Shown one piece after another: positions 30,256 to 44,700 of a DNA stretch of 64,000 nt (position 1 is its first letter; the number at the start of each line of letters is the position of its first letter). This stretch comes from Pecten maximus (lineage: Eukaryota): NCBI RefSeq assembly GCF_902652985.1, contig NC_047033.1:5518001-5582000 (forward strand), in the 5' to 3' direction. Both the position numbers and the translations under genes were made by a program. Below the pieces are notes generated by a model, which saw only the letters and a list, made by a program, of their open reading frames with translations, was not told where the DNA came from and made no database searches.

Positions 30256-32448
30256 CAATTCTAAAAGTTAGTGTATGAAGGAAACGATGTTTTCGTGTAA
30301 AAAGTATTCAAAAACACAAAAGACCATACCAAGATTCAAACAGATATTACGAAAATCCAAATCTAGCTGAGGAGGTACAGGTGTATAATTTCAATATGCA
30401 TGTATCTCACAATTTACCACCTGCAATATCAAAAGATTAGTTTAAACTCTGTTTTATTTGTCAATTTCCATTTAACAATATGTAGACAATTATATAAACT
30501 ATACAAAAAGGAATCAGAAACAAGTGTCAAGACTCTGAAATAAATCTGACACCATCTGGATTGATTGCGCATGCGTGTGGCAAGATGGACGTGGATTTTC
30601 TTCAGGTGTGACAACTATTTGATATATTTTATATTCCGGGCATTTATGTGGTCATATACAGTGTGGATTATTTGTCTATACATGATTATTACTCATGGGG
30701 AAAAACGCACAGTCCAAAAAGAAGAAAAGGAAGGACGGTTCGGGAGTTACACTGCCTAGTAAATTGCAGGTAACGTCCACATCACCTCAGCACGACAATA
30801 TGGCGACACCGTACATGCACGCGCCTATAGACTCCACTGGCGCCGCGACGCCTAACAACTATGCGGTGTCGCATTTGAACAAATGGAAAAAACTATGCTT
30901 GAAATGAAAACAGAAATTGAAACACTGAAGGATACCGTTATGAAACAAGATAAACTTTTACAAAAACAAGAGTGTCACCACTATGACGTTGAAAATAGAA
31001 TAGTGCAATTGGAACAAGCAAATGAAAACTTAGAACATGAAAATTTCACTCTAAATGAAGAAAGACTTAAACAACAGACACATAATAGGACTGAGACCAC
31101 AATTAAGTACTTCCGGGTTCAGGCCCCATGAATAAAGTCCCCTCAGAAATGTATGTATTTCATGGAAATAAATCAAATGCCTGTTTGAACTTGATTTTTG
31201 TCTATGAATTTATAGTAGCGATGTCAATCTATGTTTTGTGATGTAAAATATTAATATTGATCATGTATTTTGTGCGCCAGGGTCCTGTGTGAAAAGTCCT
31301 GATTTGACCTCTACCCCTGACCCGGATGTATATAATCCACGTTGGTGACACATTTTGACAGCTACATTTTTGTATCTCCAGAAAATGCCCAACATGCTGG
31401 GTTGAAACTTTTATATTTTGCTTCTCAGATGTTGATTCACACATCATTTCATTCATTTCACAACCACCTGACCCCCGGGCTGTCCACACGTTCCCTTGAC
31501 CTCTCCCGTAGAAGTAGTTAGAATAGTGTCGACAGCTGTTTTAGTGTTAGGATATAGATAGTAATCCCCAGTGTGATTTCTTTTTGTGGATATTTAGTGC
31601 GATAGTGTGATATTCTTGGATTATACTGTGTGTTGTGCATCCTGGCCGAGAACAGAATAGTCACCGAAATTCCAGAGAAGTCCTGCTGAAAAGTTAAGTT
31701 CTTTAGTTGTAGTTTATCAGATAGTGTTATCAGATAATTTATTTTACAGCAGCAGGACTAATTTCCTACATACAATAAGTATCGGCCTTTAATTAAGCCA
31801 TATTCCCGCAACAGTAGATATATTATTTTGATTTACTTTAGGCATATCTATTAGCGAACCAAATTTCATTACATTAAGCAATCATCTAATTTAAATTTTT
31901 TGTTTTTGTTTTCCTCTCATTTTTAATTCAGTCAGATTGTTTTTGGAAAAGCTCTATTTCAGTTAAAATTTTAAGTAATTTTTAAGTATATACTGAACTG
32001 AGTTTTACAATAGTATCCATCTATCGATCCGTAGGAGCTAAAGTATTTAATAAGCACACATAAGTATAACCCACTATCAAAATTTTTATTATCATTATCT
32101 TTACCTTTTTAATTTCTTTTTACTACCCATTTTAATATAATTCCTATCTATTTTCTTTTAAAAAAATTCTATCTTGCCTTCTCCTTCATGTTTTAAGACC
32201 TCTTTATAAATTGTCACTTAATCCCCTAACAATAGAAATACCTTCTCTCAGGTAGGTTCTATTGTTTATATCTGGCCAGGTATCTCACCTTCACGCCTGA
32301 CCGACCCCACGCTTATCTGTACCGGACACCTGTCCACGCTCTCGATCTATATCCCGCCATCTATCACTTTTCAACTTTCTATAAGAGTTACCTCCCCTAG
32401 AACAGGTAAACTCTTTCTTTCTACTTTAGAATAATTACAAAGTTTTCA

Positions 32449-33645
32449 ATGGCCCCAGCCCCATCCATCTCTAACCCTGCGGTGGTTATCCTCTCCCCTA
32501 AAGAGAGGAAGCCACTAAATGCAGGACGTGTACGTGGAGATATCTCCGCGTTCACGGGCGTCACTAGTGACGTCAGAGATATACGGATGTTGCCATCAGG
32601 CATTATCCTAATTCTCTGCGCCACCTTAGTGACGCTCAAGAAGGCGCTACTTGTAAACCAAGTAGACGGTACCCCCTGTACCGCGCGGCTATCTAAGCGG
32701 CCCTTCAATGCCCCTCCCAAGCCCCGAGCCAACCTCCGTAACGTGTCCCCCACCTCCAAAGGGGTTATATACCGCATCCCTTTAACTACACCAACAACAA
32801 ACCTCACGTCAATTAATAATGTAAAAAATGCAAGTAGGATGTACAATAAAACAAACAAAAACACAACATCAATCTTGCTAGAATTTAATTCTTCCACACT
32901 ACCAAGGAAAGTAGTTTTCAATCAAATTACATACCCTGTTACAAGATTTAACGCTCCACGAACACAACAACAACACCGACAAAAACAAACCAAAACAAGC
33001 ACAGGCCCTGAGACACACATCAAACCCTCCTACACTAATACGACAAATACGTCACTATACTCCGACATTGTCAGAAACAAACACACAGAAACCACCAAAA
33101 CACAACCCAAACACACAGGTGTATATGTCACGGCAGAATTTTTAGGAAATTTTTTACTTATAGCCCGTGACACACACATAACAGATAGGGAAGCAATCCA
33201 CAAGGTTCGTGACCTCATCAACAAACAAAATGGACACGTGATCGCAGACAGTACACCCATCAACACACCAACACAATCTACACCCAAAACAACACAAACA
33301 ACACCAACAACACAGCCTTCACCACCAACAACACCGATCCTATTCACACAAACAACACCACAAACACAAACAACATCAACAGAAACACAAACAGAAACAC
33401 CGTCAGAACATTTCATACACCTACTTGACAGTTCCGAGGAGCTAGACAGCTCAACTATATCCAAACCCAGAACACCAAGAACACCGGTAGGTATGGGTCG
33501 GTACAAAACACTACAAACAGACAAGACCCCCACAAACAAACAACAAACACCCTCACGACCAAACACAAGATCAAGGGCCAAACAAACAAACACGCCAACA
33601 AGAACAGGACACAGCAAACGCAAACTACAGTACAGAAAATACTAG
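32449..33645 (+). CDS. LINE ORF1 protein, 398 aa, Thr/Pro/Gln-rich C-half
   Basis: Open ORF directly upstream of ORF2. KGVIYRIPL..SILLEF..LPRKV..YPV resembles the pre-zinc-knuckle region of I/Jockey ORF1. Confidence 0.8.
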   Translation: MAPAPSISNPAVVILSPKERKPLNAGRVRGDISAFTGVTSDVRDIRMLPSGIILILCATLVTLKKALLVNQVDGTPCTARLSKRPFNAPPKPRANLRNVSPTSKGVIYRIPLTTPTTNLTSINNVKNASRMYNKTNKNTTSILLEFNSSTLPRKVVFNQITYPVTRFNAPRTQQQHRQKQTKTSTGPETHIKPSYTNTTNTSLYSDIVRNKHTETTKTQPKHTGVYVTAEFLGNFLLIARDTHITDREAIHKVRDLINKQNGHVIADSTPINTPTQSTPKTTQTTPTTQPSPPTTPILFTQTTPQTQTTSTETQTETPSEHFIHLLDSSEELDSSTISKPRTPRTPVGMGRYKTLQTDKTPTNKQQTPSRPNTRSRAKQTNTPTRTGHSKRKLQYRKY

Positions 33646-33726
33646 AAGCCACATAGATCACCAAAACAAACTTAGACGCCCTTCACATTCAATAAAGTCC
33701 TAAATGACCAGTCCGGCCTCACTGTT

Positions 33727-36700
33727 ATGCATTGGAATGCAGGAGGTCTCAGGCCCAAAATTTCAGAATTAAAATCCTTCCTTAATGACAATTCCCCGGA
33801 TATTCTTTGTATTCAGGAAACTCAACTGAAACAAAAACACAAAAGTTTAAAAATTAATGGTTACAACACTCCTTTTAGGTACGATTCGGACCAAGGTTTG
33901 GCCATTTATGTAAAAAGCGGAATTGCCTACAAAGAGTATGAAATCAAAGATAAAGATCTTGTGGCTCTTGGTATAGAATTACACAACAAGTCACACAAAA
34001 CAATCATACTCAACATATACCTCTCACCAACAAAACCAATACCATTTAACTCTCTGGTTAACCTTATAGAAAACACTGACACAAACAACATTATAGTTAC
34101 CGGAGATTTTAATGGACACCATACACTTTGGGGGAGCAACAAAAACAACAAACGAGGGGACACTATATATGAATGGGCAGTTCAGACTGGTCTAACCATA
34201 CTAAACGAGGGTAAACCAACTAGAGTAGACATAGCTCGAGGTATCGAATCACATCTAGATATAACATTAGCAACACCAAACTTAGCGAGTAAATGTAGCT
34301 ACTGGAATACCCTTGATAGCACTCTAGGATCAGACCACTATCCAGTTTTGGCTCAATTCGATTTTAAACCACATGTTAATACTATTCAGTATCCCCCTAG
34401 ATGGGTTTTTAATAAAGCGAATTGGAATCAATTTAATCTTTTAACCGAAAACATCCAAATTGATGAAATTTATGATGAAAATGTAGATATTTTCAATGAT
34501 AATCTAACAAGAGCTATTTTAGACCTAGCATCAGTATGTATCCCTAGAACGTCAGGAAAGCCAAAAACTAGGAAAAATAATCCATGGTGGAACGATGAGT
34601 GTAGGTTAGCAAAGAAACTAAAAAAGAATAGTGAAAGTAAATGGAGGGCAAACAAAAATAACGAAACGCTAAAAGCAAATTATGTCAGATGTAAAACAAA
34701 TTTTAATAACATTATTCAAAACGTCAAACGAAATCATTGGGAAGAGTTTTGTTCATCATTAAATAATAAAACAAATCTAAAAAATGTATGGTCAAAGGTC
34801 AAAGCTATTCAGGGAATAAATAGAACTGAAATCCCTATATTAGGTAAAAACAACATTACCGATAAGGAAAAGGCTGATACTCTAGCTAAACAATATCAGA
34901 GCGCTAGCAGTAATGATAACTTAACTCCTGAATTTAAATTAAATAAAGCTAACAATCAGGATAACATAGACGACGTTATAAGTAACCCCGGCCCCAATAC
35001 AGGTGAGCTGAACTGTCCCATTTACAATCACAGAATACAACAATGCACTTCAGAACAAGAAAAACACATCTCCAGGAGATGACAACATTTCATACACCAT
35101 CCTCAAACACTGTACAAACAACATAACAGAAATAATACTTAAACTCTTAAACCACATATGGCAACAGGGAACTATACCTGAGGCGTGGAAAAAGGCCGTA
35201 GTTATACCTATACTAAAACCAGGTAAAAATCCGCAGGAACCTGCATCATATAGGCCCATAGCATTAACTTCTCACCTCTGTAAAGTAATGGAAACTATGG
35301 TAAATAACAGGCTAGTATATTCACTTGAAAGCTCAGGTATCATCAACGAGGAACAGAGCGGGTTCCGTAAAGGTAGATCTACGCTAGACCCCCTTCTTAG
35401 ACTCACCTCAGATATTAAAAAAGGTTTGAACCTAAAACGAAGTACACTAGCTGTCTTTTTAGATCTAGAAAAAGCATATGATCTTATTTGGCATGATGGT
35501 CTTTTAGTATCACTTAAAAATCATGGTATAACTGGTAACATATTTAAATTCGTAAGCAGTTTCCTGAAAAAACGTAAGATCCAGGTTAGAATTCATGACA
35601 CGTTATCAGATCAATATGAACTAGAAAACGGTGTAGCACAGGGTAGTGTAATATCCCCTACTCTTTTTAATATCTACATTAATACTCTGTCACAAACGCT
35701 CCACAATAAAACCAAGTTAGCACAATTTGCAGATGACGGATGTATTTGGAGTACAGGTAAAAACATTAGATATTTAACCAAACATATCCAGACAACGTTG
35801 ACAGCAATTAATGAGTGGGCTAATAAGTGGGGGTTTAAACCATCTAAACAGAAAACAATAGCAATGTATTTCTCTAAAAGTAAGAAACTTCCTGAACTAT
35901 ACCTAGGACAAACTAAACTAAAATTTGAGAAACAAGTTAGGTATTTAGGCATGATAATAGATCATAAACTAACTTGGAGTAAACATATTAAATATGTTAA
36001 GGAGACATGCCAAAAGGCAATAAACACTATGAGATATATTTCAGGATGTAAATTTGGCGCCAATAAAACTACACAATTAATGCTATATAAAGCGTTAGTT
36101 AGATCTAGGCTAGATTATGGGTGCCAGGTATATAATACAGCTAGCGACACAGTACTAAAACATCTAGATGTAATTCAACATTCAGCCTTAAGAGTAGCGC
36201 TAAGGGCAATCAAAAACACCAATACCAACAGTTTATTAGCAGAGGCAGGTGAACCCCCCTTAACTCTCAGGCGAGAAAATCTTACATTAAAATACTGGGC
36301 TAGGACACAAAGTCATGGTGATAAATTTCTCCTAAATAAAGAAATAAAAGATAGTGAACATCCCGTCAATAACAACAGGGCTCCATATCCATCAGAAATA
36401 ATTAGACTAAAACAAAAGTATGGTTTAGACAGCGTTAAAATATCCCGCAAACAAGATTTCCAAGTCCCGTGGTTAAAAACAGACCCTAATGTATCGCTAG
36501 ACCTCCTAAAGATGATAGATAAACAAAACGACCCGATAGGCGCTAAAAACCTAGCATTAGAACTGATAGATCGAAAATACAATAACTTTACTAAATTCTA
36601 TACTGACGGCTCAAAAAATCCAGACAGTAACCGTGTAGGTTTAGGAATATATAACAACACCTATAAAGTTAAAAAGTCATTACGGTTAAGCGATAGAGCA

Positions 36701-37462
36701 TCGGTTTATACAGCAGAGCTTATGGCCATTCAAATTGCTTTGATAGGTGTAAAGAAAAATCACACTAAATTTGATAAAGTAGTAATTCTTTCGGATTCCC
36801 TTAGCTCCTTACAATCTCTAATAACTGGTAACAGCAGTAGGCCTAAACTACTTAATGCAATCCACTACATGATATCAGAGATTGATCAACTAGGTATAGA
36901 TCTTCAATTTGAATGGATCCCATCGCACGTAGATATACCAGGTAATGAGGTAGCAGATCAGTTAGCTAAAGAAGCCCTAGGGTCAAATGTCATCCATCTA
37001 AACATAGACCTGAGTGTCACAGAGGTCGTTAGTATAATCAATAATAAAACCCAATCGATATGGCAGGATAGTTGGTCGAAATTAACTAATAACTGGCTCA
37101 GAAACATCGAGGATAATGTCAAAATCAAAACTCAGTTATATAGTTATAATAAAACAGAGGATACTGTAATAACTAGACTTAGATTAGGATACACCAAGCT
37201 TGGTCATAACATCAATAGAATTAAGAAAGAAGTCAGTCCCTATTGTATAAACTGTGGCGAACCAGAAACAATAGAACATATCCTATTCGAATGCAGCGCC
37301 CATGATAACCATAGGTCAGACTTTAAAGACGAAATAGAAAATTTAGATAAAATCAAATTTGATACTAAGTCTATACTAAATCCTCCTAAACAACACATGA
37401 GACACATTTTCGATCTTCTCACTGCATATCTCACTGCTATTGATTATCTAGACAAGATCTAA
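33727..37462 (+). CDS. LINE ORF2 (APE endonuclease, RT, RNase H, C-terminal Zn finger) with one frameshift at ~35016
   Basis: WNAGGL, IQET, GDFNGH, SDH; DLEKAYD, QGSVISP, FADD; YTDGS, AELMAI, SDSLS, WIPSHVDIPGNEVAD; CINCGEPETIEHILFEC. Removing one base near TGTCCCA restores PFTITEYNNAL..SPGDD. Confidence 0.9.
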
Positions 37463-38075
37463 GATAGCGATACTTAACAACCATTTTTTACACACCTAAC
37501 ATTAACGTACGTTATCCCTGCAAAAACAACTCACTTTTTTCCCAGTTACACGGTTCTTTTTTTTTTCTCTCTCTCTCTCTCTCTCACTCTCTTTAACAAC
37601 AACACAATGCCCTTTTTTTTTTTTTTTTTTTAAACATTAGGATCCTCAGGATACCCAGGGAGACTGTTCCAGGGGGGATAACTACTGATCTCTCCATTAA
37701 TTGGGACATACTGAGACTCCAGGAGGTCTGGGGTCTCCTCCTCTGTGCCCCAACCCCCGTATGTCAGACGTCATATACTCAACAGGTGTCCACCCCGGGG
37801 TGTCTGAGGTATCTATCCTCCCTGTTCGAGCTATGTGGCGTTTGATACCACAACACATATTCCTAAAGGGTCACACAACAAACACACACGAACATGTGAC
37901 ACCACACATGTATATATTCCTCACTTTACTACCAACCCTTATAATAGATCCCACCCCTACTCTGCAGTAATGTCTGCCCCGGGGTGGTCCTAGGTTTATC
38001 ATCCCTGCTACGAGGAACGTACCTATTTTTATACTCAACACCACATTCACTGTAGGGATACGTACGTTTACAAAC

Positions 38076-38535
38076 ACACCAAACAAGCATACACCACGAT
38101 AGGACATAATGTGTATTGTACAGCTTCGCACCTCGTCAGGTGCACTTAGTAGTGAATGATCCGTACAAAAGCATTATAAACACTCACACCAAACAAAAAT
38201 ACAACACGCATACACCACGATAGGACATAATGTGTATTGTACAGCTTCTCACCTCGTCAGGTGCACTTAAGTGAATGATCTGTACAAAAGCATTATAAAC
38301 TCTCACACCAAACAAAAATACAACACGCATACACCACGATAGGAAATAATGTGTATTGTACAGCTTCTCACCTCGTCAGGTGCACTTAAGTGAATGATCT
38401 GTACAAAAGCATTATAAACACTCACACCAAACAAAGATACAACACTCATACACCACGATAGGAAATAATGCGTATTGTACAGCTTCTCACCTCGTCAGGT
38501 GCACTTAAGTGAATGATCTGTACAAAAGCATTATA
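38076..38535 (+). repeat. Four tandem ~119-121-bp structured repeats in the LINE 3' UTR
   Basis: ACACCACGAT recurs at 38091, 38212, 38331 and 38450. Each unit has a self-complementary core and an A/C-rich linker. Confidence 0.92.
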
Positions 38536-39218
38536 TATTCCCCAAACCACACAAAAAGCGCATCGCAACATATGAACATCTATACCATTCATACACAAAA
38601 TAGGTAACACAATTTGACATCAGATATCCACCTACTCTGCAGGTGTGTCTGCCCCGGAGTGGTCCGGGTTGTAGACCCCCTGTGACGAGGAACGTGGTAT
38701 CTACCTTCTAAAACATGTACCTAAATACACCAACACAAACCCCGAATATAGAGGTGGGGACCTCCCATGCCAATACCATCTGGCAACTCCCCTTTCTAAA
38801 CCCCCTTCCTCCCCTCCTATCTTTTCCTCTTACTTTTACTAATCGCTATCAAACTGTGCTTTATGTACATAGCACTGCTCCAGTAGGGTAGGCTTGTAGA
38901 TGATTATACACAGTAATCAACAGTCTCCCGAAAAACAGTCTTTGTATAATAACTCGCATTATCACATAATCCAAATTTCCTATACTTACCCAAACCCAGC
39001 ACTACCCCTCTATAATCACCCTATAACTACACTCTACATAACAAACTAGTCTGATCTATACCCTACCCCTTACCCATTCGAAAACACCATGGTTATAGCA
39101 ATACAAAATGGTGTCTAGAATTCCTACTATCAATAACAAAACTATATCCCACTAACAAACTACACCAAATTTTTCAAACCAATCTATACTCTATCTCACG
39201 CTATCTTCTACACTTCTT

Positions 39219-39325
39219 GTCCTTCGGAAGGGACGTTAATCCGGGGTCCGGTGTACGGTGAGTCACGCCGTGCACGTTAAAGATCCTCTGCTGGTTTTCA
39301 AACAAGAGTAGGCTAATTGCTAGCC
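39219..39325 (+). other. Deu/Nin-like SINE core domain inside the LINE 3' UTR
   Basis: GTCCTTCGGAAGGGACGTTAATCCGGGGTCC...ACGTTAAAGATCC...TTTTC..AAGAGTAGG matches the recalled DeuSINE/AmnSINE1 core motif order. Confidence 0.7.
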
Positions 39326-41659
39326 GCCACAGAGTATAGGTTCATATAGGTCTCGATTAGGATAACGTAGGGTATTAAGGCAATTCAGTGACAGGTCAAA
39401 ATTTTTTTTTTTTTTAGACATAGAGATAATCGTCTGTCCCTCTCATATTAGATCATTTGGCGATGACGAAATGCGAAATTGCTCCCTATTTAGTGCCCCG
39501 ACCCACCCCTTTCCCCTTAGTGTCCTAGGCTCGGTTATAACCGGAACAAGGACGTTAAGCCCCATCAATCAATCAATCAATCAACATTTTGACAGCTATC
39601 TCCAGAAAATACCCAACATGCTATGTTGAAACTTTTATATTTTGCTTCTCACATGTTGGTCTTGGCCAGGTGAGATGGAAAGTTGCATATGAGATATTGG
39701 GAATTTACTATGAATTTTAATGTTACAATGAAACATATAGCGAAGCTAATTGTGGTCTCGGTCCACATGACATGAAGTTCAATCTAATTTTCAACGGCAT
39801 TACGGAAACGGAAAACACACAGGACGGACAAGCGACGGAAACAGTGCTGAGAGAGTTTATTAAAACAACATTGAAAGTTGACAGTGCTGATGACATTTTA
39901 TTTCATAACGTTCACAGGTTACAACCTAGATCTGACGGGAAACCGAGGGGAATTATCGCCAAATTTGTGCAGTACGCGGATCGCGACCGTGTTCTGAAAG
40001 CAGTTCCGGAGGGCCTTAGAGACAAGCACCATAACTCGGTGTACAAGCAATTTCCTCCCGAAATAGCACAACGAAGGGCGAAACTGTATCCAAAATTAAG
40101 AGAACTTAAAAACAGCGGCAATAATGTGAAATTAGTTTACGACAAGCTGTATGTAAATGGTTCCCTATATGAGGCCCCCGCTTCGGAAAATGCGCGCCAA
40201 TGGAATGGACCCGCCCGCGACAGAGATCATGCACGAGGGGTCGCTTATTAGGACAGTCGCCCAGACGACCTCCAGACGGACCACACCACTACACAACTCA
40301 ATGTTGGTTTTCTAAATGTCTGTGGTATCAAAACAAAACTACGCAATCCTGAATTTTTATCCTTAATTTCAGGATATGACATATTTATATGTGTAGAGAC
40401 AAAAACTGACGACCTTGATGATATTTCGCTTCCAAATGAGTATGATTTTCATCTGAAAAATAGAAAAAAATTAAAAGAAAAACCGGAGGTATTATAGTTA
40501 TATATAGAAAGATATTGTCTGATGTGTTACACTTTCATAACACTAAATCCGAATATGTTCAGTGCTTTGAAATATTAGAAAAATCTACAAATTCAAGAAA
40601 AAGTTTCTTATTTGGGTGTGTATATATCCCGCCCGAGTACTCCAAATATTCTTCTGAAAATGCATTCACTGATTTTGAAGATGAATTGATTTCTTTATTT
40701 AATGAGGATAAAAAAGTAGTTTTGTTGGGAGACTTTAATGCGAGGACAGCGACAATATCTGACTATATTATGCCGGATAAAAAATTTGATTGATTTGTTA
40801 AATATTGTTGAAGATAATAATGATATAGACAATATGTATTCGTTTCAGCAGTTACTAGATCAAAATATTTCTCTAACAAGATATAACAAGGATATAGCAA
40901 ATCCAAACAAATATGGTTTAAGGTTAATCGAGTTATGTAAACAATGCTCCATTTTTATTGCTAATGGTCGTATAGGAAAAGATAAATTCATCGGCGAAAC
41001 AACATGCCGAGATGTCAGTCTATTTGACTATCTTTTATTGTCAGCTGACGCGTTTAAATATATATCCCAATTTGAATTAATAATGAAGTTGGTCCTTCTA
41101 ATCATGTAAAATGGAATCCCGTGAAAAAGGAGGAATTTACAACAGCACTTAATTCAGACCCTGATAATAAATTGCGAGATATCGATAGTAAATTAAATGA
41201 AATGTTAACACTTGCCAATGTTAATAAGGTTTATATTAATAAGGTTGTTGATGATCTATGTAATGTACTGACAACTACTGCCTCGAATGTATTTGGGGTG
41301 ATTTCTAATACACGATGTAAAGTTAAAACTAAGCAAGGGAGTAAACCGTGGTTTAACAAAGACTGTAAAGTAGCCCTTGATGCATTTAACAAGATAAAAA
41401 ACAAATACAAAACCGATAAGTCACCAGAAAATAAAACACAGTTAAAGGTCAAAGGTAGGGAATTACGTAAACTAATTAATGTAAATTTTAGGAATTACCA
41501 GGATAAATGTGCCAAAGAACTAAGGACACTTTCCAAAAGTAACCCTAAGATGTTTTGGAAAATACTTAACAAATTTAGTATATCAAAAAAGAAGAGTCCA
41601 TACGTACCTTTAGATTTGATTTACAAATATATACTTCAAGAAAATAAATAGTGACAGAG

Positions 41660-41713
41660 ATGGTGATGATGATGATGATGATGATGATGATGCCTTATCT
41701 GATGATGATGATG
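41660..41713 (+). repeat. (GAT)n microsatellite at a disrupted point of the RTE-X ORF2
   Basis: Directly visible. Confidence 0.9.
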
Positions 41714-44700
41714 TAATATTTAACACAGGAATAATAACTGAAAGCTGGACAATTGGTGTCATCAAGCCTATGTATAAAAACAAGGGAAATGAAAACGATC
41801 CAGATAATTATAGAGCAATAACTCTTATCAGTTGTCTTGGAAAACTGTTTACCTCGATAATAAATACTAGATTAAATGCATTCTCGAACCGAACAAATCC
41901 AATATCAAAAAATCAAGCAGGGTTCCGACAAAAACACTCCACAGTCGATAACATATTCATAATGCATGCGTTGATATCTATTCATCTGGCTAGTAATAAA
42001 AAATTATACTGCACTTTTGTTGATTTTCGTAAAGCATTCGATACCGTCTGGCGTGCAGGACTATGGGATAAACTTAGAAAGACTAACATAAAAGGGAAAT
42101 GCTTTAGAGTAATTCATAATATGTATGATAATATAAAATCTTGCGTACAATATAACTCACAAACTTCTGATTGCTTTCCGTGTTTAGTTGGTGTACGCCA
42201 AGGGGAAAATCTCTCTCCATTTCTTTTTTCAATATTTTAAAATGATTTAGAAGAATATATGGGGTCTAAAGGAGTTAGCTCCCTTGACATTACATGTATG
42301 TCTACGAAACTGTCCGAAACTCTACAAATTTTTATGAAAATATTGATATTATTATACGCAGACGATACCGTAATTTTTTTCTGAAACGCCAAAAGATATG
42401 CAAAATGCACTGGATATTTTTCAACAGTATTGCGATACATGGAAACTACAAGTCAACATTAACAAAACAAAAGTGATGATTTTTAGTAAGAGAAAAAATA
42501 GACAAGTTTCTCATTTTGTGTTAAACGGGCAAGTACTAGAAACTACAGATACGTTTACTTATCTTGGTGTCAATTTCAAGTATAATGGAAGTTTTTCCTC
42601 TGCTATAAAGAGATTGGGTGATCAAGCACAGAAGTCTATATACTCAATATATAAACAGGTACGTTATCATGCTATACCTATAGATTTACAGTTAAAATTA
42701 TTTGATTCATTAGTCCAGCCAATATTGTTATACGGCTCAGAAGTATGGGGTTTCGAAAATTGTAGTCAAATTGAACAAATTCACCTTAAATTTTGCAAAC
42801 GCATATTAAAAGTTAGAAGCAGTACTCCAAATTATATGGTATATGGCGAATTGGGTAGGTTTCCACTAGAAGTTGATATTAAACTGAGAATGCTATCATT
42901 TTGGAACAAAATTATACAAAATGAAAACAAATTAAGTAGCATATTGTATAAACTAATCTCAAAATTGCATGCTGAAGGATCCTATAGCTTTAAATGGATA
43001 ACTTATATTAAAAATATTTTTGATGAAGCTGGTTACTCGAACATTTTCATGAACGATATACAAATGTTTGAGGACTTTTATAAATGTATCATGAGGCAAC
43101 GCTTTCAGGATCAATTTATTCAGAAATGGTATTCGAATGTTGAAAACTCGTCTAAAGGTCATACTTATTTATTATTCAAACCGAAATTTGGTTTTGAAAA
43201 TTATCTTACTAAGTTATCAGAAAGAAATAGAATAATTCTAACCAAATTTCGCACGTCTAATTTAAAATGCCAATCGAGACAGGTAGATGGCATAATGTGT
43301 TAAAAGAAGAAAGGATATATACTTTATGTAATGAAAATGTTGGAGATGAGTTTCACTATTTGTTTATATGTAAGCATGAAGGAGTCAAAATTATACGCTC
43401 AAAATATATACCACATTATTACTGTAATAATCCAAGCTTACATAAAATAAGTGGTTTAATATCAATATGTAATATTCAATTACTGAAGAAAATTTCACTG
43501 TTTATTAGAAAACTGACGGTGCTTTTGTAAAGTTATTTATGTATAGCTATAAAGACTGTAATTAATATAACTGTGTAGAAATGTAAGCGTATACATGTAG
43601 TTAGATCTTTTAGTATATTCTATTTCACATTTCAATCAAGATGTGTAATATCTATACTGTATGTATTTATTCAAGATCAACTCTTTAATTATAAGATTAG
43701 AGTAGGTATTGTTATATAGATATATGATACACATGCATATTCTATAATTATGGTCTAAAATTAATTCTAAAAAATCTACACTGTTCTACTGTTCATCTTG
43801 CCATGTGTTGTTTCATGATGTAATCCATGTTACACATATCAATGTGTCTGGGTGACTAAAAATAAATCTGAAATCTGAAATCTGACACCTGTATATACAG
43901 GTTAACGTTTCATAACATCAGAGACATGATAAAACATGACGTCGTGTCATAATGACAATAGAGACTGAAGTGAAAATATAAATTTGAATTTGACCAAATA
44001 ATTGAATAAATTGTAGTAAATAAAAAGGAAGAAAAACGTGAACGTGCAAAATAAGTACAGCTACGTCAGCATAGGAAATGTGTTTGATTTTACAAAGTAC
44101 AAAGGACCCATATGATATAGTCATTTAGTATAATTCCATATTTATTTATGATCACCTTAACCATTGTATAATAATATTCGAAAGGGGATGTTAATGTTTT
44201 CTTTTAAACGAATAATTTATACATTATCAATTAGCCAACGGGGTTCGGACGTTTATAGGGACATTAATAGTATACCTCAATACATTACTTTATCTATTTT
44301 CTATACTGATAAAATGTTCGCCTGCAAAGTCATATGTCTATGTTAATTACTTAAACGTATGTAAATGTAAATGATTAAATCATATTAATTCTTTATATAG
44401 GTGTATATATATACAGCTACATTTTTTTGTCGATATGCGTTGAGTCACTTCATGATATAACCACTTAGTAGCTTTATTTGTTCAATACGTATACGATAGC
44501 TATAACTACATAGTATATATAAGTAAGCTAGACTAATAGTTACAACATACAAATTAAAATATTTATATTATGATGAGTACTAGGAAACATGTTATTGCAA
44601 ATAAAATCAGTCAAGTTGAGGAGAGGTAACTCTTTACCAGGGAAAATTACGCCAAAATTTAAGTATAATTCATACGTATGTGGTTACCCCTTTAAGCTTC

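Follow-up and report, generated by a model that had tools for sequence, protein, structure and literature searches.

A predicted three-way-junction RNA module in the 3' UTRs of a LINE and of Mutator DNA transposons in Pecten maximus

The LINE, its 3' UTR and the tandem array

The window analysed here (the whole 64,000-nucleotide stretch of Pecten maximus DNA) carries on its forward strand a full-length LINE with a long 3' UTR, in which four tandem units of a predicted RNA fold, which we call module C, lie among copies of two other modules, A and B. The features of the element are as follows.

31447..39584, + strand: I-group (Nimb-like) LINE, full length, 8.1 kb, with a (TCAA)n end; 5' limit set by alignment with copy L089
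32449..33645, + strand: ORF1, 398 aa, without a Pfam match; a frame of identical length (398 aa) is present in L089
33727..37462, + strand: ORF2, with AP endonuclease, reverse transcriptase (RT) and RNase H; one extra base near 35017 splits the frame
37463..39584, + strand: 3' UTR, 2.1 kb, of structured modules and A/C-rich spacers, without AATAAA or ATTAAA
37642..37802, + strand: module A, its sequence shared with the sister LINE-B and with a Mutator family
37780..37826, + strand: module B, copy 0
37950..38030, + strand: module B, copy 1
38106..38177, + strand: module C, unit 1 (core 38116-38168)
38227..38296, + strand: module C, unit 2 (core 38237-38287)
38346..38415, + strand: module C, unit 3 (core 38356-38406)
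38465..38534, + strand: module C, unit 4 (core 38475-38525)
38625..38705, + strand: module B, copy 2, with 78% identity to copy 1 and a fold z score of -4.24
39520..39584, + strand: 3' terminal stem-loop and (TCAA)n tail, common to many other elements (loose ends before 39519-39521, high depth)

The combination of ORF1, an ORF2 with AP endonuclease, RT and RNase H, and a short tandem-repeat tail is that of I-group LINEs. The nearest named homologs come from molluscs and fish, and we infer the Nimb label from the domain set and this host range. ORF2 is open in other copies of the element (1244 aa in L089, in which ORF1 is open as well). I-group ORF1 proteins usually have zinc-knuckle motifs; none was seen in ORF1 of the window (32449-33645), nor in that of L089. 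By analogy with stringent-type LINEs, the 3' terminal stem-loop, rather than the array, is likely to be the recognition site of the reverse transcriptase (PMC3747384).

About 75 nt of flank is duplicated around the element (31350-31435 and 39583-39660) with a 10-nt indel and several mismatches, which is not a clean target duplication, and the duplicated flank is itself a high-copy repeat. A second, broken LINE begins just behind the first (39772-43303, RT match at 41770-42240). Within the UTR, the GC-rich segment at 39215-39400, which has a similar counterpart at the same place in LINE-B, presumably resembles the central-domain sequence of SINEs.

Tandem Repeats Finder places the array at 38082-38535, with a period of 119, 3.8 copies and 96% matches; the array begins 654 nt after the ORF2 stop, and its four units of 119-121 nt are spaced by 121, 119 and 119 nt. 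In window coordinates the outer helix has its 5' arms at 38106, 38227, 38346 and 38465 and its 3' arms at 38172, 38291, 38410 and 38529, and the inner helix begins at 38116, 38237, 38356 and 38475 in units 1 to 4. The minimum-energy fold of every unit has the same plan, in which an outer stem encloses an inner one that leads to a junction bearing two hairpins. An earlier note on this DNA had described four tandem units of about 120 nt with this fold and had placed them in a LINE 3' UTR; the repeat and the agreeing folds uphold the first claim, and the second is secured by the ORF2 stop at 37462 and the (TCAA)n end of the element near 39584. The 2-nt insertion that it had reported in the second hairpin of copy 1 lengthens the P3 loop, and unit 1 departs from the others in three further ways: a substitution in the junction, an A.C mismatch within P1, the inner stem, and a shorter 5' spacer.

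The folding energies are modest, with z scores of -0.75, -1.20, -1.51 and -3.78 for the four units in windows of 99-101 nt. Trimming the units to their stems gives z scores of -2.55 to -4.20, a treatment that favours the result. Because energy alone is weak evidence, the case for structure rests on the comparison between families. That comparison delimits the conserved part of the unit as a three-way-junction core of about 50 nt, the outer stem being family-specific. In the predicted core, P1 is closed by three invariant pairs, followed by a 2x1 internal loop and then a 2-bp helix; P2 has 5 bp and a tetraloop and abuts P3 with 0-1 nt between them; and P3 has four conserved pairs below a free loop of 2-16 nt.

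A search of the 918-Mb genome with the LINE unit gave 147 matches. Counted over 21 LINE loci, there are 90 units. The comparison of copy number among LINE copies that the earlier note had proposed yields 1-15 units per locus, and younger copies carry more of them (Spearman 0.65, p=0.03; n=11 copies untruncated within the array). At least eight loci span ORF2, array and tail (the window, L038, L039, L045, L090, L091, L093 and L037/L089). Seven copies are 5'-truncated within the array, three of them just 3' of the outer stem, two a few bases 5' of it and two inside, and seven points are too few to use. In L037 and L089 an internal deletion takes out modules A and B and keeps 7-9 C units. At L043:1988-2267 the 60-nt LINE tail stands four times in tandem, directly upstream of a truncated copy.

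Assembled contigs of four runs cover LINE arrays, and contigs of four runs likewise cover the arrays of the Mutator family MULE-A described below; such contigs carry no information on ends, strand or level. One run recorded as RNA covers 38195-38343, with the proviso that the runs may contain DNA.

The core in Mutator transposons and in a sister LINE

The earlier note had described the modules in the LINE. They are not specific to it: the core also occurs behind Mutator DNA transposon genes, and at least three modules of the UTR are shared. The weakest matches of the unit search (E 1.2e-6), which were also the only ones outside LINEs, correspond to unit positions 47-89 and lie in a 124-nt array. 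This array belongs to MULE-A, represented by four loci 99% alike. Its units, four or five in number with a 124-nt period, begin some 10 nt past the stop codon of a frame that is 927 aa or longer. The frame encodes OTU and MULE transposase domains (PF10551 at 28.3 bits against a cut-off of 27.6, PF00872 weak, OTU at 23.6 against 23.3). The LINE and MULE-A share the folded core only, and their flanks are unrelated. A search for the termini of MULE-A found a shared 3' end near L034:9300 and no 5' end, and a 20-kb self-comparison gave no matching terminal repeat. Degenerate extra C cores were noticed at L034:8133-8188 and L082:6198-6252, about 150-200 nt upstream of an HDV-like motif, which in MULE-A lies at L034:8336-8402 (+ strand).

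When the DNA downstream of 20 Mutator and 20 LINE relatives was compared with a covariance model, R1, three of the 40 loci fell below E 1e-5: L098, L103 (twice) and L115. L098 loses the fold. L103 and L115 represent a second family, MULE-B, with a protein 36-38% identical to that of MULE-A and a 20-nt exact core between different P1 and P3 extensions, so that LINE-A, MULE-A and MULE-B are identical over 20 nt. The MULE-B pattern has 22 matches, all in the 3' region of this family, with a transposase upstream in the locus for nine of them. A sequence-divergent form with the same topology is found in LINE-B (47 pattern matches against 1 in the control), where arrays have a 125-nt period and up to ten units; the same form stands directly upstream of the C array in the old LINE copy L035. 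In a third Mutator family, MULE-C, 11 of 13 matches are full cores, in one to four units, and a looser form occurs in two further Mutator families (11 matches, control 0). Throughout, C-type cores are in sense orientation within the 3' UTR, 10-180 nt after the stop in three Mutator families, or in five if the looser form is counted.

The module is patchily distributed. A descriptor of the fold that placed hardly any constraint on sequence recovered the LINE-A, MULE-A and MULE-B cores as well as the divergent form, with 7 stray hits in 1.7 Mb, both strands included. A relaxed descriptor, through which MULE-C was added, hit 8 of 118 loci, against 4 on the antisense strand and 0 in shuffled sequence, and many Mutator and LINE relatives are without the module. 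R1 missed the divergent form, and further carriers may exist in the genome beyond the loci and patterns searched. In other animals, 80 Mutator loci, 57 of them with more than 300 nt of downstream sequence, yielded none of modules A, B and C; R1 had no match in 80 metagenome loci, and exact-pattern scans for the module gave none in viral contigs and none in metagenome contigs. A scan for the Mutator protein returned none in viral contigs and one locus in prokaryote genomes, where no module was seen. The evidence for module C thus comes from one genome. Rfam, which the earlier note had named as a check, returned three chance-level rows and no match for the module at E up to 10 in window region 36500-40500, and we found no description of module C in the literature searched.

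For covariation we used one row per family (LINE-A, MULE-A, MULE-B, LINE-B and MULE-C) and counted pairs by script; a MAFFT alignment was unusable for pair counts, with P3 mis-registered. Pairing holds in every one of the 75 predicted cells, and two-sided changes fall at 4 of the 15 positions: P1.4, the 2-bp helix, P2.2, which appears as three different Watson-Crick pairs, and P2.5. P2.3 shifts from C-G to U.G, and the remaining 10 positions are invariant among the five families. With the looser form included, 103 of 105 cells pair and 7 of 15 positions change on both sides. The corresponding shuffle control (1/10000) overstates the significance and is no probability, the rows being related and having been parsed with a fold-based descriptor. 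An A.C mismatch in P1, present in 19 of the 21 LINE loci, counts against pairing. A candidate pseudoknot between L2 and J3/1 was rejected: it has 3 bp in three families and 2 bp in four of seven, and it is the 2-bp J1/2-J3/1 helix that co-varies instead.

The strand preference differs between the forms. P2 is predicted with probability 0.90 on the sense strand against 0.12 on the antisense strand in the window, and 0.73 against 0.03 in the variant of L035, and the G.U pairs of the LINE forms fit the sense strand. In the Mutator forms the two strands fold about equally well; P2 and P3 have probabilities of just 0.40 and 0.44 in MULE-C.

Among LINE-A units, the core makes up 47% of the aligned bases from 21 LINE loci, a set that leaves aside L089, L090 and L084 as likely duplicates and L036 as error-rich. 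It contains 36 of the 77 variants private to one locus and 7 of the 32 shared by at least two loci (Fisher p=0.018). Inherited variants avoid the core, which points to selection on the structured module. The earlier note had taken the units to be structured and had proposed a covariation check among homologs, with random substitutions relative to the stems counting against it; covariation across families and the depletion of inherited variants both favour its view. Taken together, module C is, on the sequences and models compared here, a selected and unnamed predicted RNA fold common to a retrotransposon and to DNA transposons.

Modules A and B and the HDV-like ribozymes

The same manner of sharing is seen for the other modules of the UTR. 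Module A is 83-87% identical in LINE-B, though ORF2 is only about 44% identical, and its first 100 nt or so are 71-73% identical to a 154-nt unit that stands twice after the stop of one Mutator family (L104, L107, L108 and L109; the doublet is at L104:1126-1381). The type of module B forms 98-nt arrays of 7-10 units after the stop of the Mutator family of L102 (L102:3009-3774). Module B begins like the divergent C form, with 37 pattern matches in LINEs and Mutators, and may be a junction paralogous to C. By sequence comparison, LINEs and Mutators share at least three 3' UTR modules (A, B and C) in the same way.

On a transposase tree of 27 rows, the deepest split separates MULE-A from MULE-B, and nearer relatives of MULE-A have another module or none. 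The core has likely been exchanged between the two transposon classes. The patchiness on the transposase tree could also come from repeated loss.

HDV-like ribozymes are defined by a nested double pseudoknot, P1-P2-P3-P1.1-P4, with a catalytic C in J4/2. A strict descriptor of this kind detected the full HDV-like fold, in sense orientation, downstream of the Mutator transposases of L031-034, L101 and L114, and in Mutators of other animals at L241:4209, L260:4141 and 4427, and L266:2004, with no hit in 411 kb of shuffled DNA and none on either strand of the window. A relaxed scan recovered a P1/P3/L3/GG core on the sense strand of 13 of 21 Mutator loci of this genome, 183-2073 nt beyond the point where the transposase match stops; in 11 of the 13 it follows an A-rich run (63-83% A in 30 nt). 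Besides L034, L101 and L114, sense-strand HDV-like folds are noted in L097, L100, L102, L111, L104, L107-109, L106 and L110. In L106 and L110 an A-rich run of about 60 nt is followed by the ribozyme motif about 190 nt after the stop. On 14 transposon loci Rfam gave only chance rows apart from weak HDV/CPEB3 ones at the distal Mutator motif, and we found nothing on HDV-like ribozymes in Mutators in the literature searched. The motifs suggest that Mutator messages may be ended by a ribozyme.

Possible functions of the core

The earlier note had offered a ribozyme, a nuclease-blocking fold and a protein-binding array as functions of the units, and the last of these fits best. The reading we prefer, and hold at about even confidence, is that the core is a docking site for a host protein on LINE and Mutator mRNAs, exchanged between the classes and amplified in tandem. 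The sharing of the core, its position and orientation, its covariation and its changes in copy number are observed. In the cell, the core would fold into a three-way junction on the sense RNA of LINE and Mutator messages, and a host protein would dock on it in the 3' UTR. The bound protein may stabilise the mRNA or help the translation of these long-tailed transposon messages. Tandem amplification would raise the dose, with copy number tuning the effect, and the module would be traded between the LINE and Mutator classes. What the two have in common is a long 3' UTR on a message that has to persist, leave the nucleus and be translated in host cells. The proteins of LINEs and Mutators are unrelated, so that a host factor is the simpler choice for a shared partner and a binder encoded by the elements is unlikely. 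Moreover, a fold common to a LINE and to DNA transposons cannot concern reverse transcription and would point to a host-side step common to transposon messages.

It is possible, but unlikely, that the module replaces the poly(A) tail on messages without normal polyadenylation, in the way of viral 3' translation enhancers or of the MALAT1 end. AATAAA and ATTAAA are absent from the LINE UTR, where 2.4 would be expected, a deficit that is not significant (20 of 200 shuffles also have none), and the HDV-like cores downstream of 13 of the 21 Mutator transposases, which follow an A-rich run in 11 cases, would suit such messages. Among the five Mutator families with a C core, however, an HDV-like core was detected in MULE-A alone (none in L103, L115, L116, L105 and L112), and AATAAA-type hexamers stand before the end of MULE-B and, in MULE-A, just before the ribozyme. 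The module also has no U-rich loop able to hold an A-run, and here it parts from the nearest precedent that has been tested, the ENE. The ENE of Evade is a structured 3' UTR element that raises RNA stability or level and insertions, and ENE motifs occur in many plant and fungal transposon RNAs (PMC12501189). Module C is alike in being a structured 3' UTR element of transposon RNAs. The ENE binds the poly(A) tail through an internal loop that is rich in U and flanked by short helices, whereas module C is a three-way junction whose internal loop is 2x1 and, in each of seven families, lacks U-richness on both sides at once; its carriers are a LINE and Mutators of an animal, with tandem arrays of up to 15.

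A neutral origin, in which fragments are captured between nested transposons and then expanded by slippage, seems quite unlikely. Nested insertions and capture of the Pack-MULE type are common, array length changes freely and the evidence comes from a single genome, all of which a neutral account would accommodate. It would leave unexplained that a folded core of only about 50 nt is shared, repeatedly, by seven families with unrelated flanks, that changes in the core are compensatory and inherited variants depleted, and that modules A and B follow the same pattern. Very unlikely, too, is a block to 5'-to-3' exonuclease of the xrRNA kind, by which stable 3' fragments would be left for the LINE machinery to copy. 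Flaviviral xrRNAs are tandem three-way junctions in a 3' UTR, as is predicted for module C in all families, and two of the seven array-truncated copies start within a few nt 5' of the outer stem. Yet three of the seven truncations lie just 3' of the outer stem, more like a stall of the reverse transcriptase, and 3' fragments would bring no obvious benefit to a DNA transposon. Class 1 xrRNAs also have a pseudoknot between a loop and downstream sequence and a ring at the 5' end. The host of module C is moreover a transposon, and no conserved pseudoknot was found among the families compared: the P3 loop is free to vary in both length and sequence, no conserved pairing of the loop with downstream sequence is evident, and the L2-J3/1 knot falls to 2 bp in four of the seven families.

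That the array acts in DNA, as an enhancer built of transcription-factor sites, is highly improbable. The P2 arms form a spaced palindrome that we take to resemble E-box or T-box sites, 20 nt are identical in LINE-A, MULE-A and MULE-B, and tandem monomers do act as promoters in mouse L1. Against this, the variant form alters the sequence of P2 and keeps its pairing, G.U works only in sense RNA, the core is always in sense orientation in a 3' UTR, and there is covariation in the P1 and P3 extensions. It is extremely improbable that the module is a self-cleaving ribozyme of some new class: whole copies extend from ORF2 across the array into the tail, so full-length RNA survives, and no known signature fits. 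The compact fold with its invariant junction bases would suit a ribozyme, and Mutators do carry HDV-like ones, but the 5' ends of truncated copies show no single common site, and up to ten cutters behind a stop codon would be redundant. The earlier note had found no match to hammerhead, HDV, twister, pistol or hairpin ribozymes, and signature scans and Rfam are likewise empty. For twister, pistol and hairpin the patterns had no hit on either strand and Rfam no match to E 10. An HDV reading of the module by way of an upstream stem was ruled out by the descriptor, which has no hit in the window. The hammerhead signature is a core of CUGANGA and GAAA, with three stems around it and a UH site; a hammerhead reading of an antisense heptamer was rejected, there being no GAAA or stem I, an empty signature scan and no heptamer in the variant form.

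The host-protein docking site has precedents in kind. The retroviral elements for RNA transport and stability (CTE, RTE and RSE) and the 3' translation enhancers of plant viruses are folds that dock host factors on intron-less mobile-element RNAs, and the effect of the CTE rises with the number of copies. Module C matches none of them in sequence or fold, and Rfam is blank. PTE-type enhancers have a G-rich bulge in the basal stem and a C-rich strand between two hairpins, whereas module C has 0-1 nt between P2 and P3 and no G bulge. Conserved modules of SINEs and LINE UTRs have long been without a function and are usually explained by the needs of retrotransposition. In molluscs, the central domains of SINEs (V/Vhc, MESC, Snail and Ceph) and LINE-derived bodies contain short modules swapped among elements, some with a predicted stem-loop (PMC4758252, PMC5786205). 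Module C is alike in being a conserved module that is swapped, but the published domains lie in SINE bodies, LINE 5' UTRs or tails, and the portions of those two papers available to us describe none shared with the 3' UTRs of DNA transposons. This comparison is by description, and the published domains may hold related sequences. Module C is a new structured 3' UTR element of transposon RNA, of a known kind, with a predicted fold that is in neither Rfam nor the literature searched.

It is tempting to speculate further that bivalve transposon classes trade a toolkit of at least three unnamed 3' UTR folds, with the junction as the cellular counterpart of viral 3' translation and stability enhancers, recruiting host machinery by copy number, including on messages that would lack ordinary polyadenylation, such as those of the LINE with its missing poly(A) signal and of Mutators terminated by an HDV-like ribozyme behind an encoded A-run; we regard this as doubtful. 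If the module were to boost mRNA output, its size of about 50 nt, with natural variants and a dose series of 1-15 copies, would make it a candidate small expression element.

Mutator stops are also followed by tandem repeats of other sequence. In L097 (1150-1420) and L100 (3618-4026) a GC-rich 146-nt unit, unrelated to A, B and C, is repeated two to three times right after the stop. In Mutators of other animals (L229, L231, L240, L265 and L280), tandem duplications of 75-264 nt, again of unrelated sequence, lie right behind the gene, within the 300 nt that follow the transposase match.
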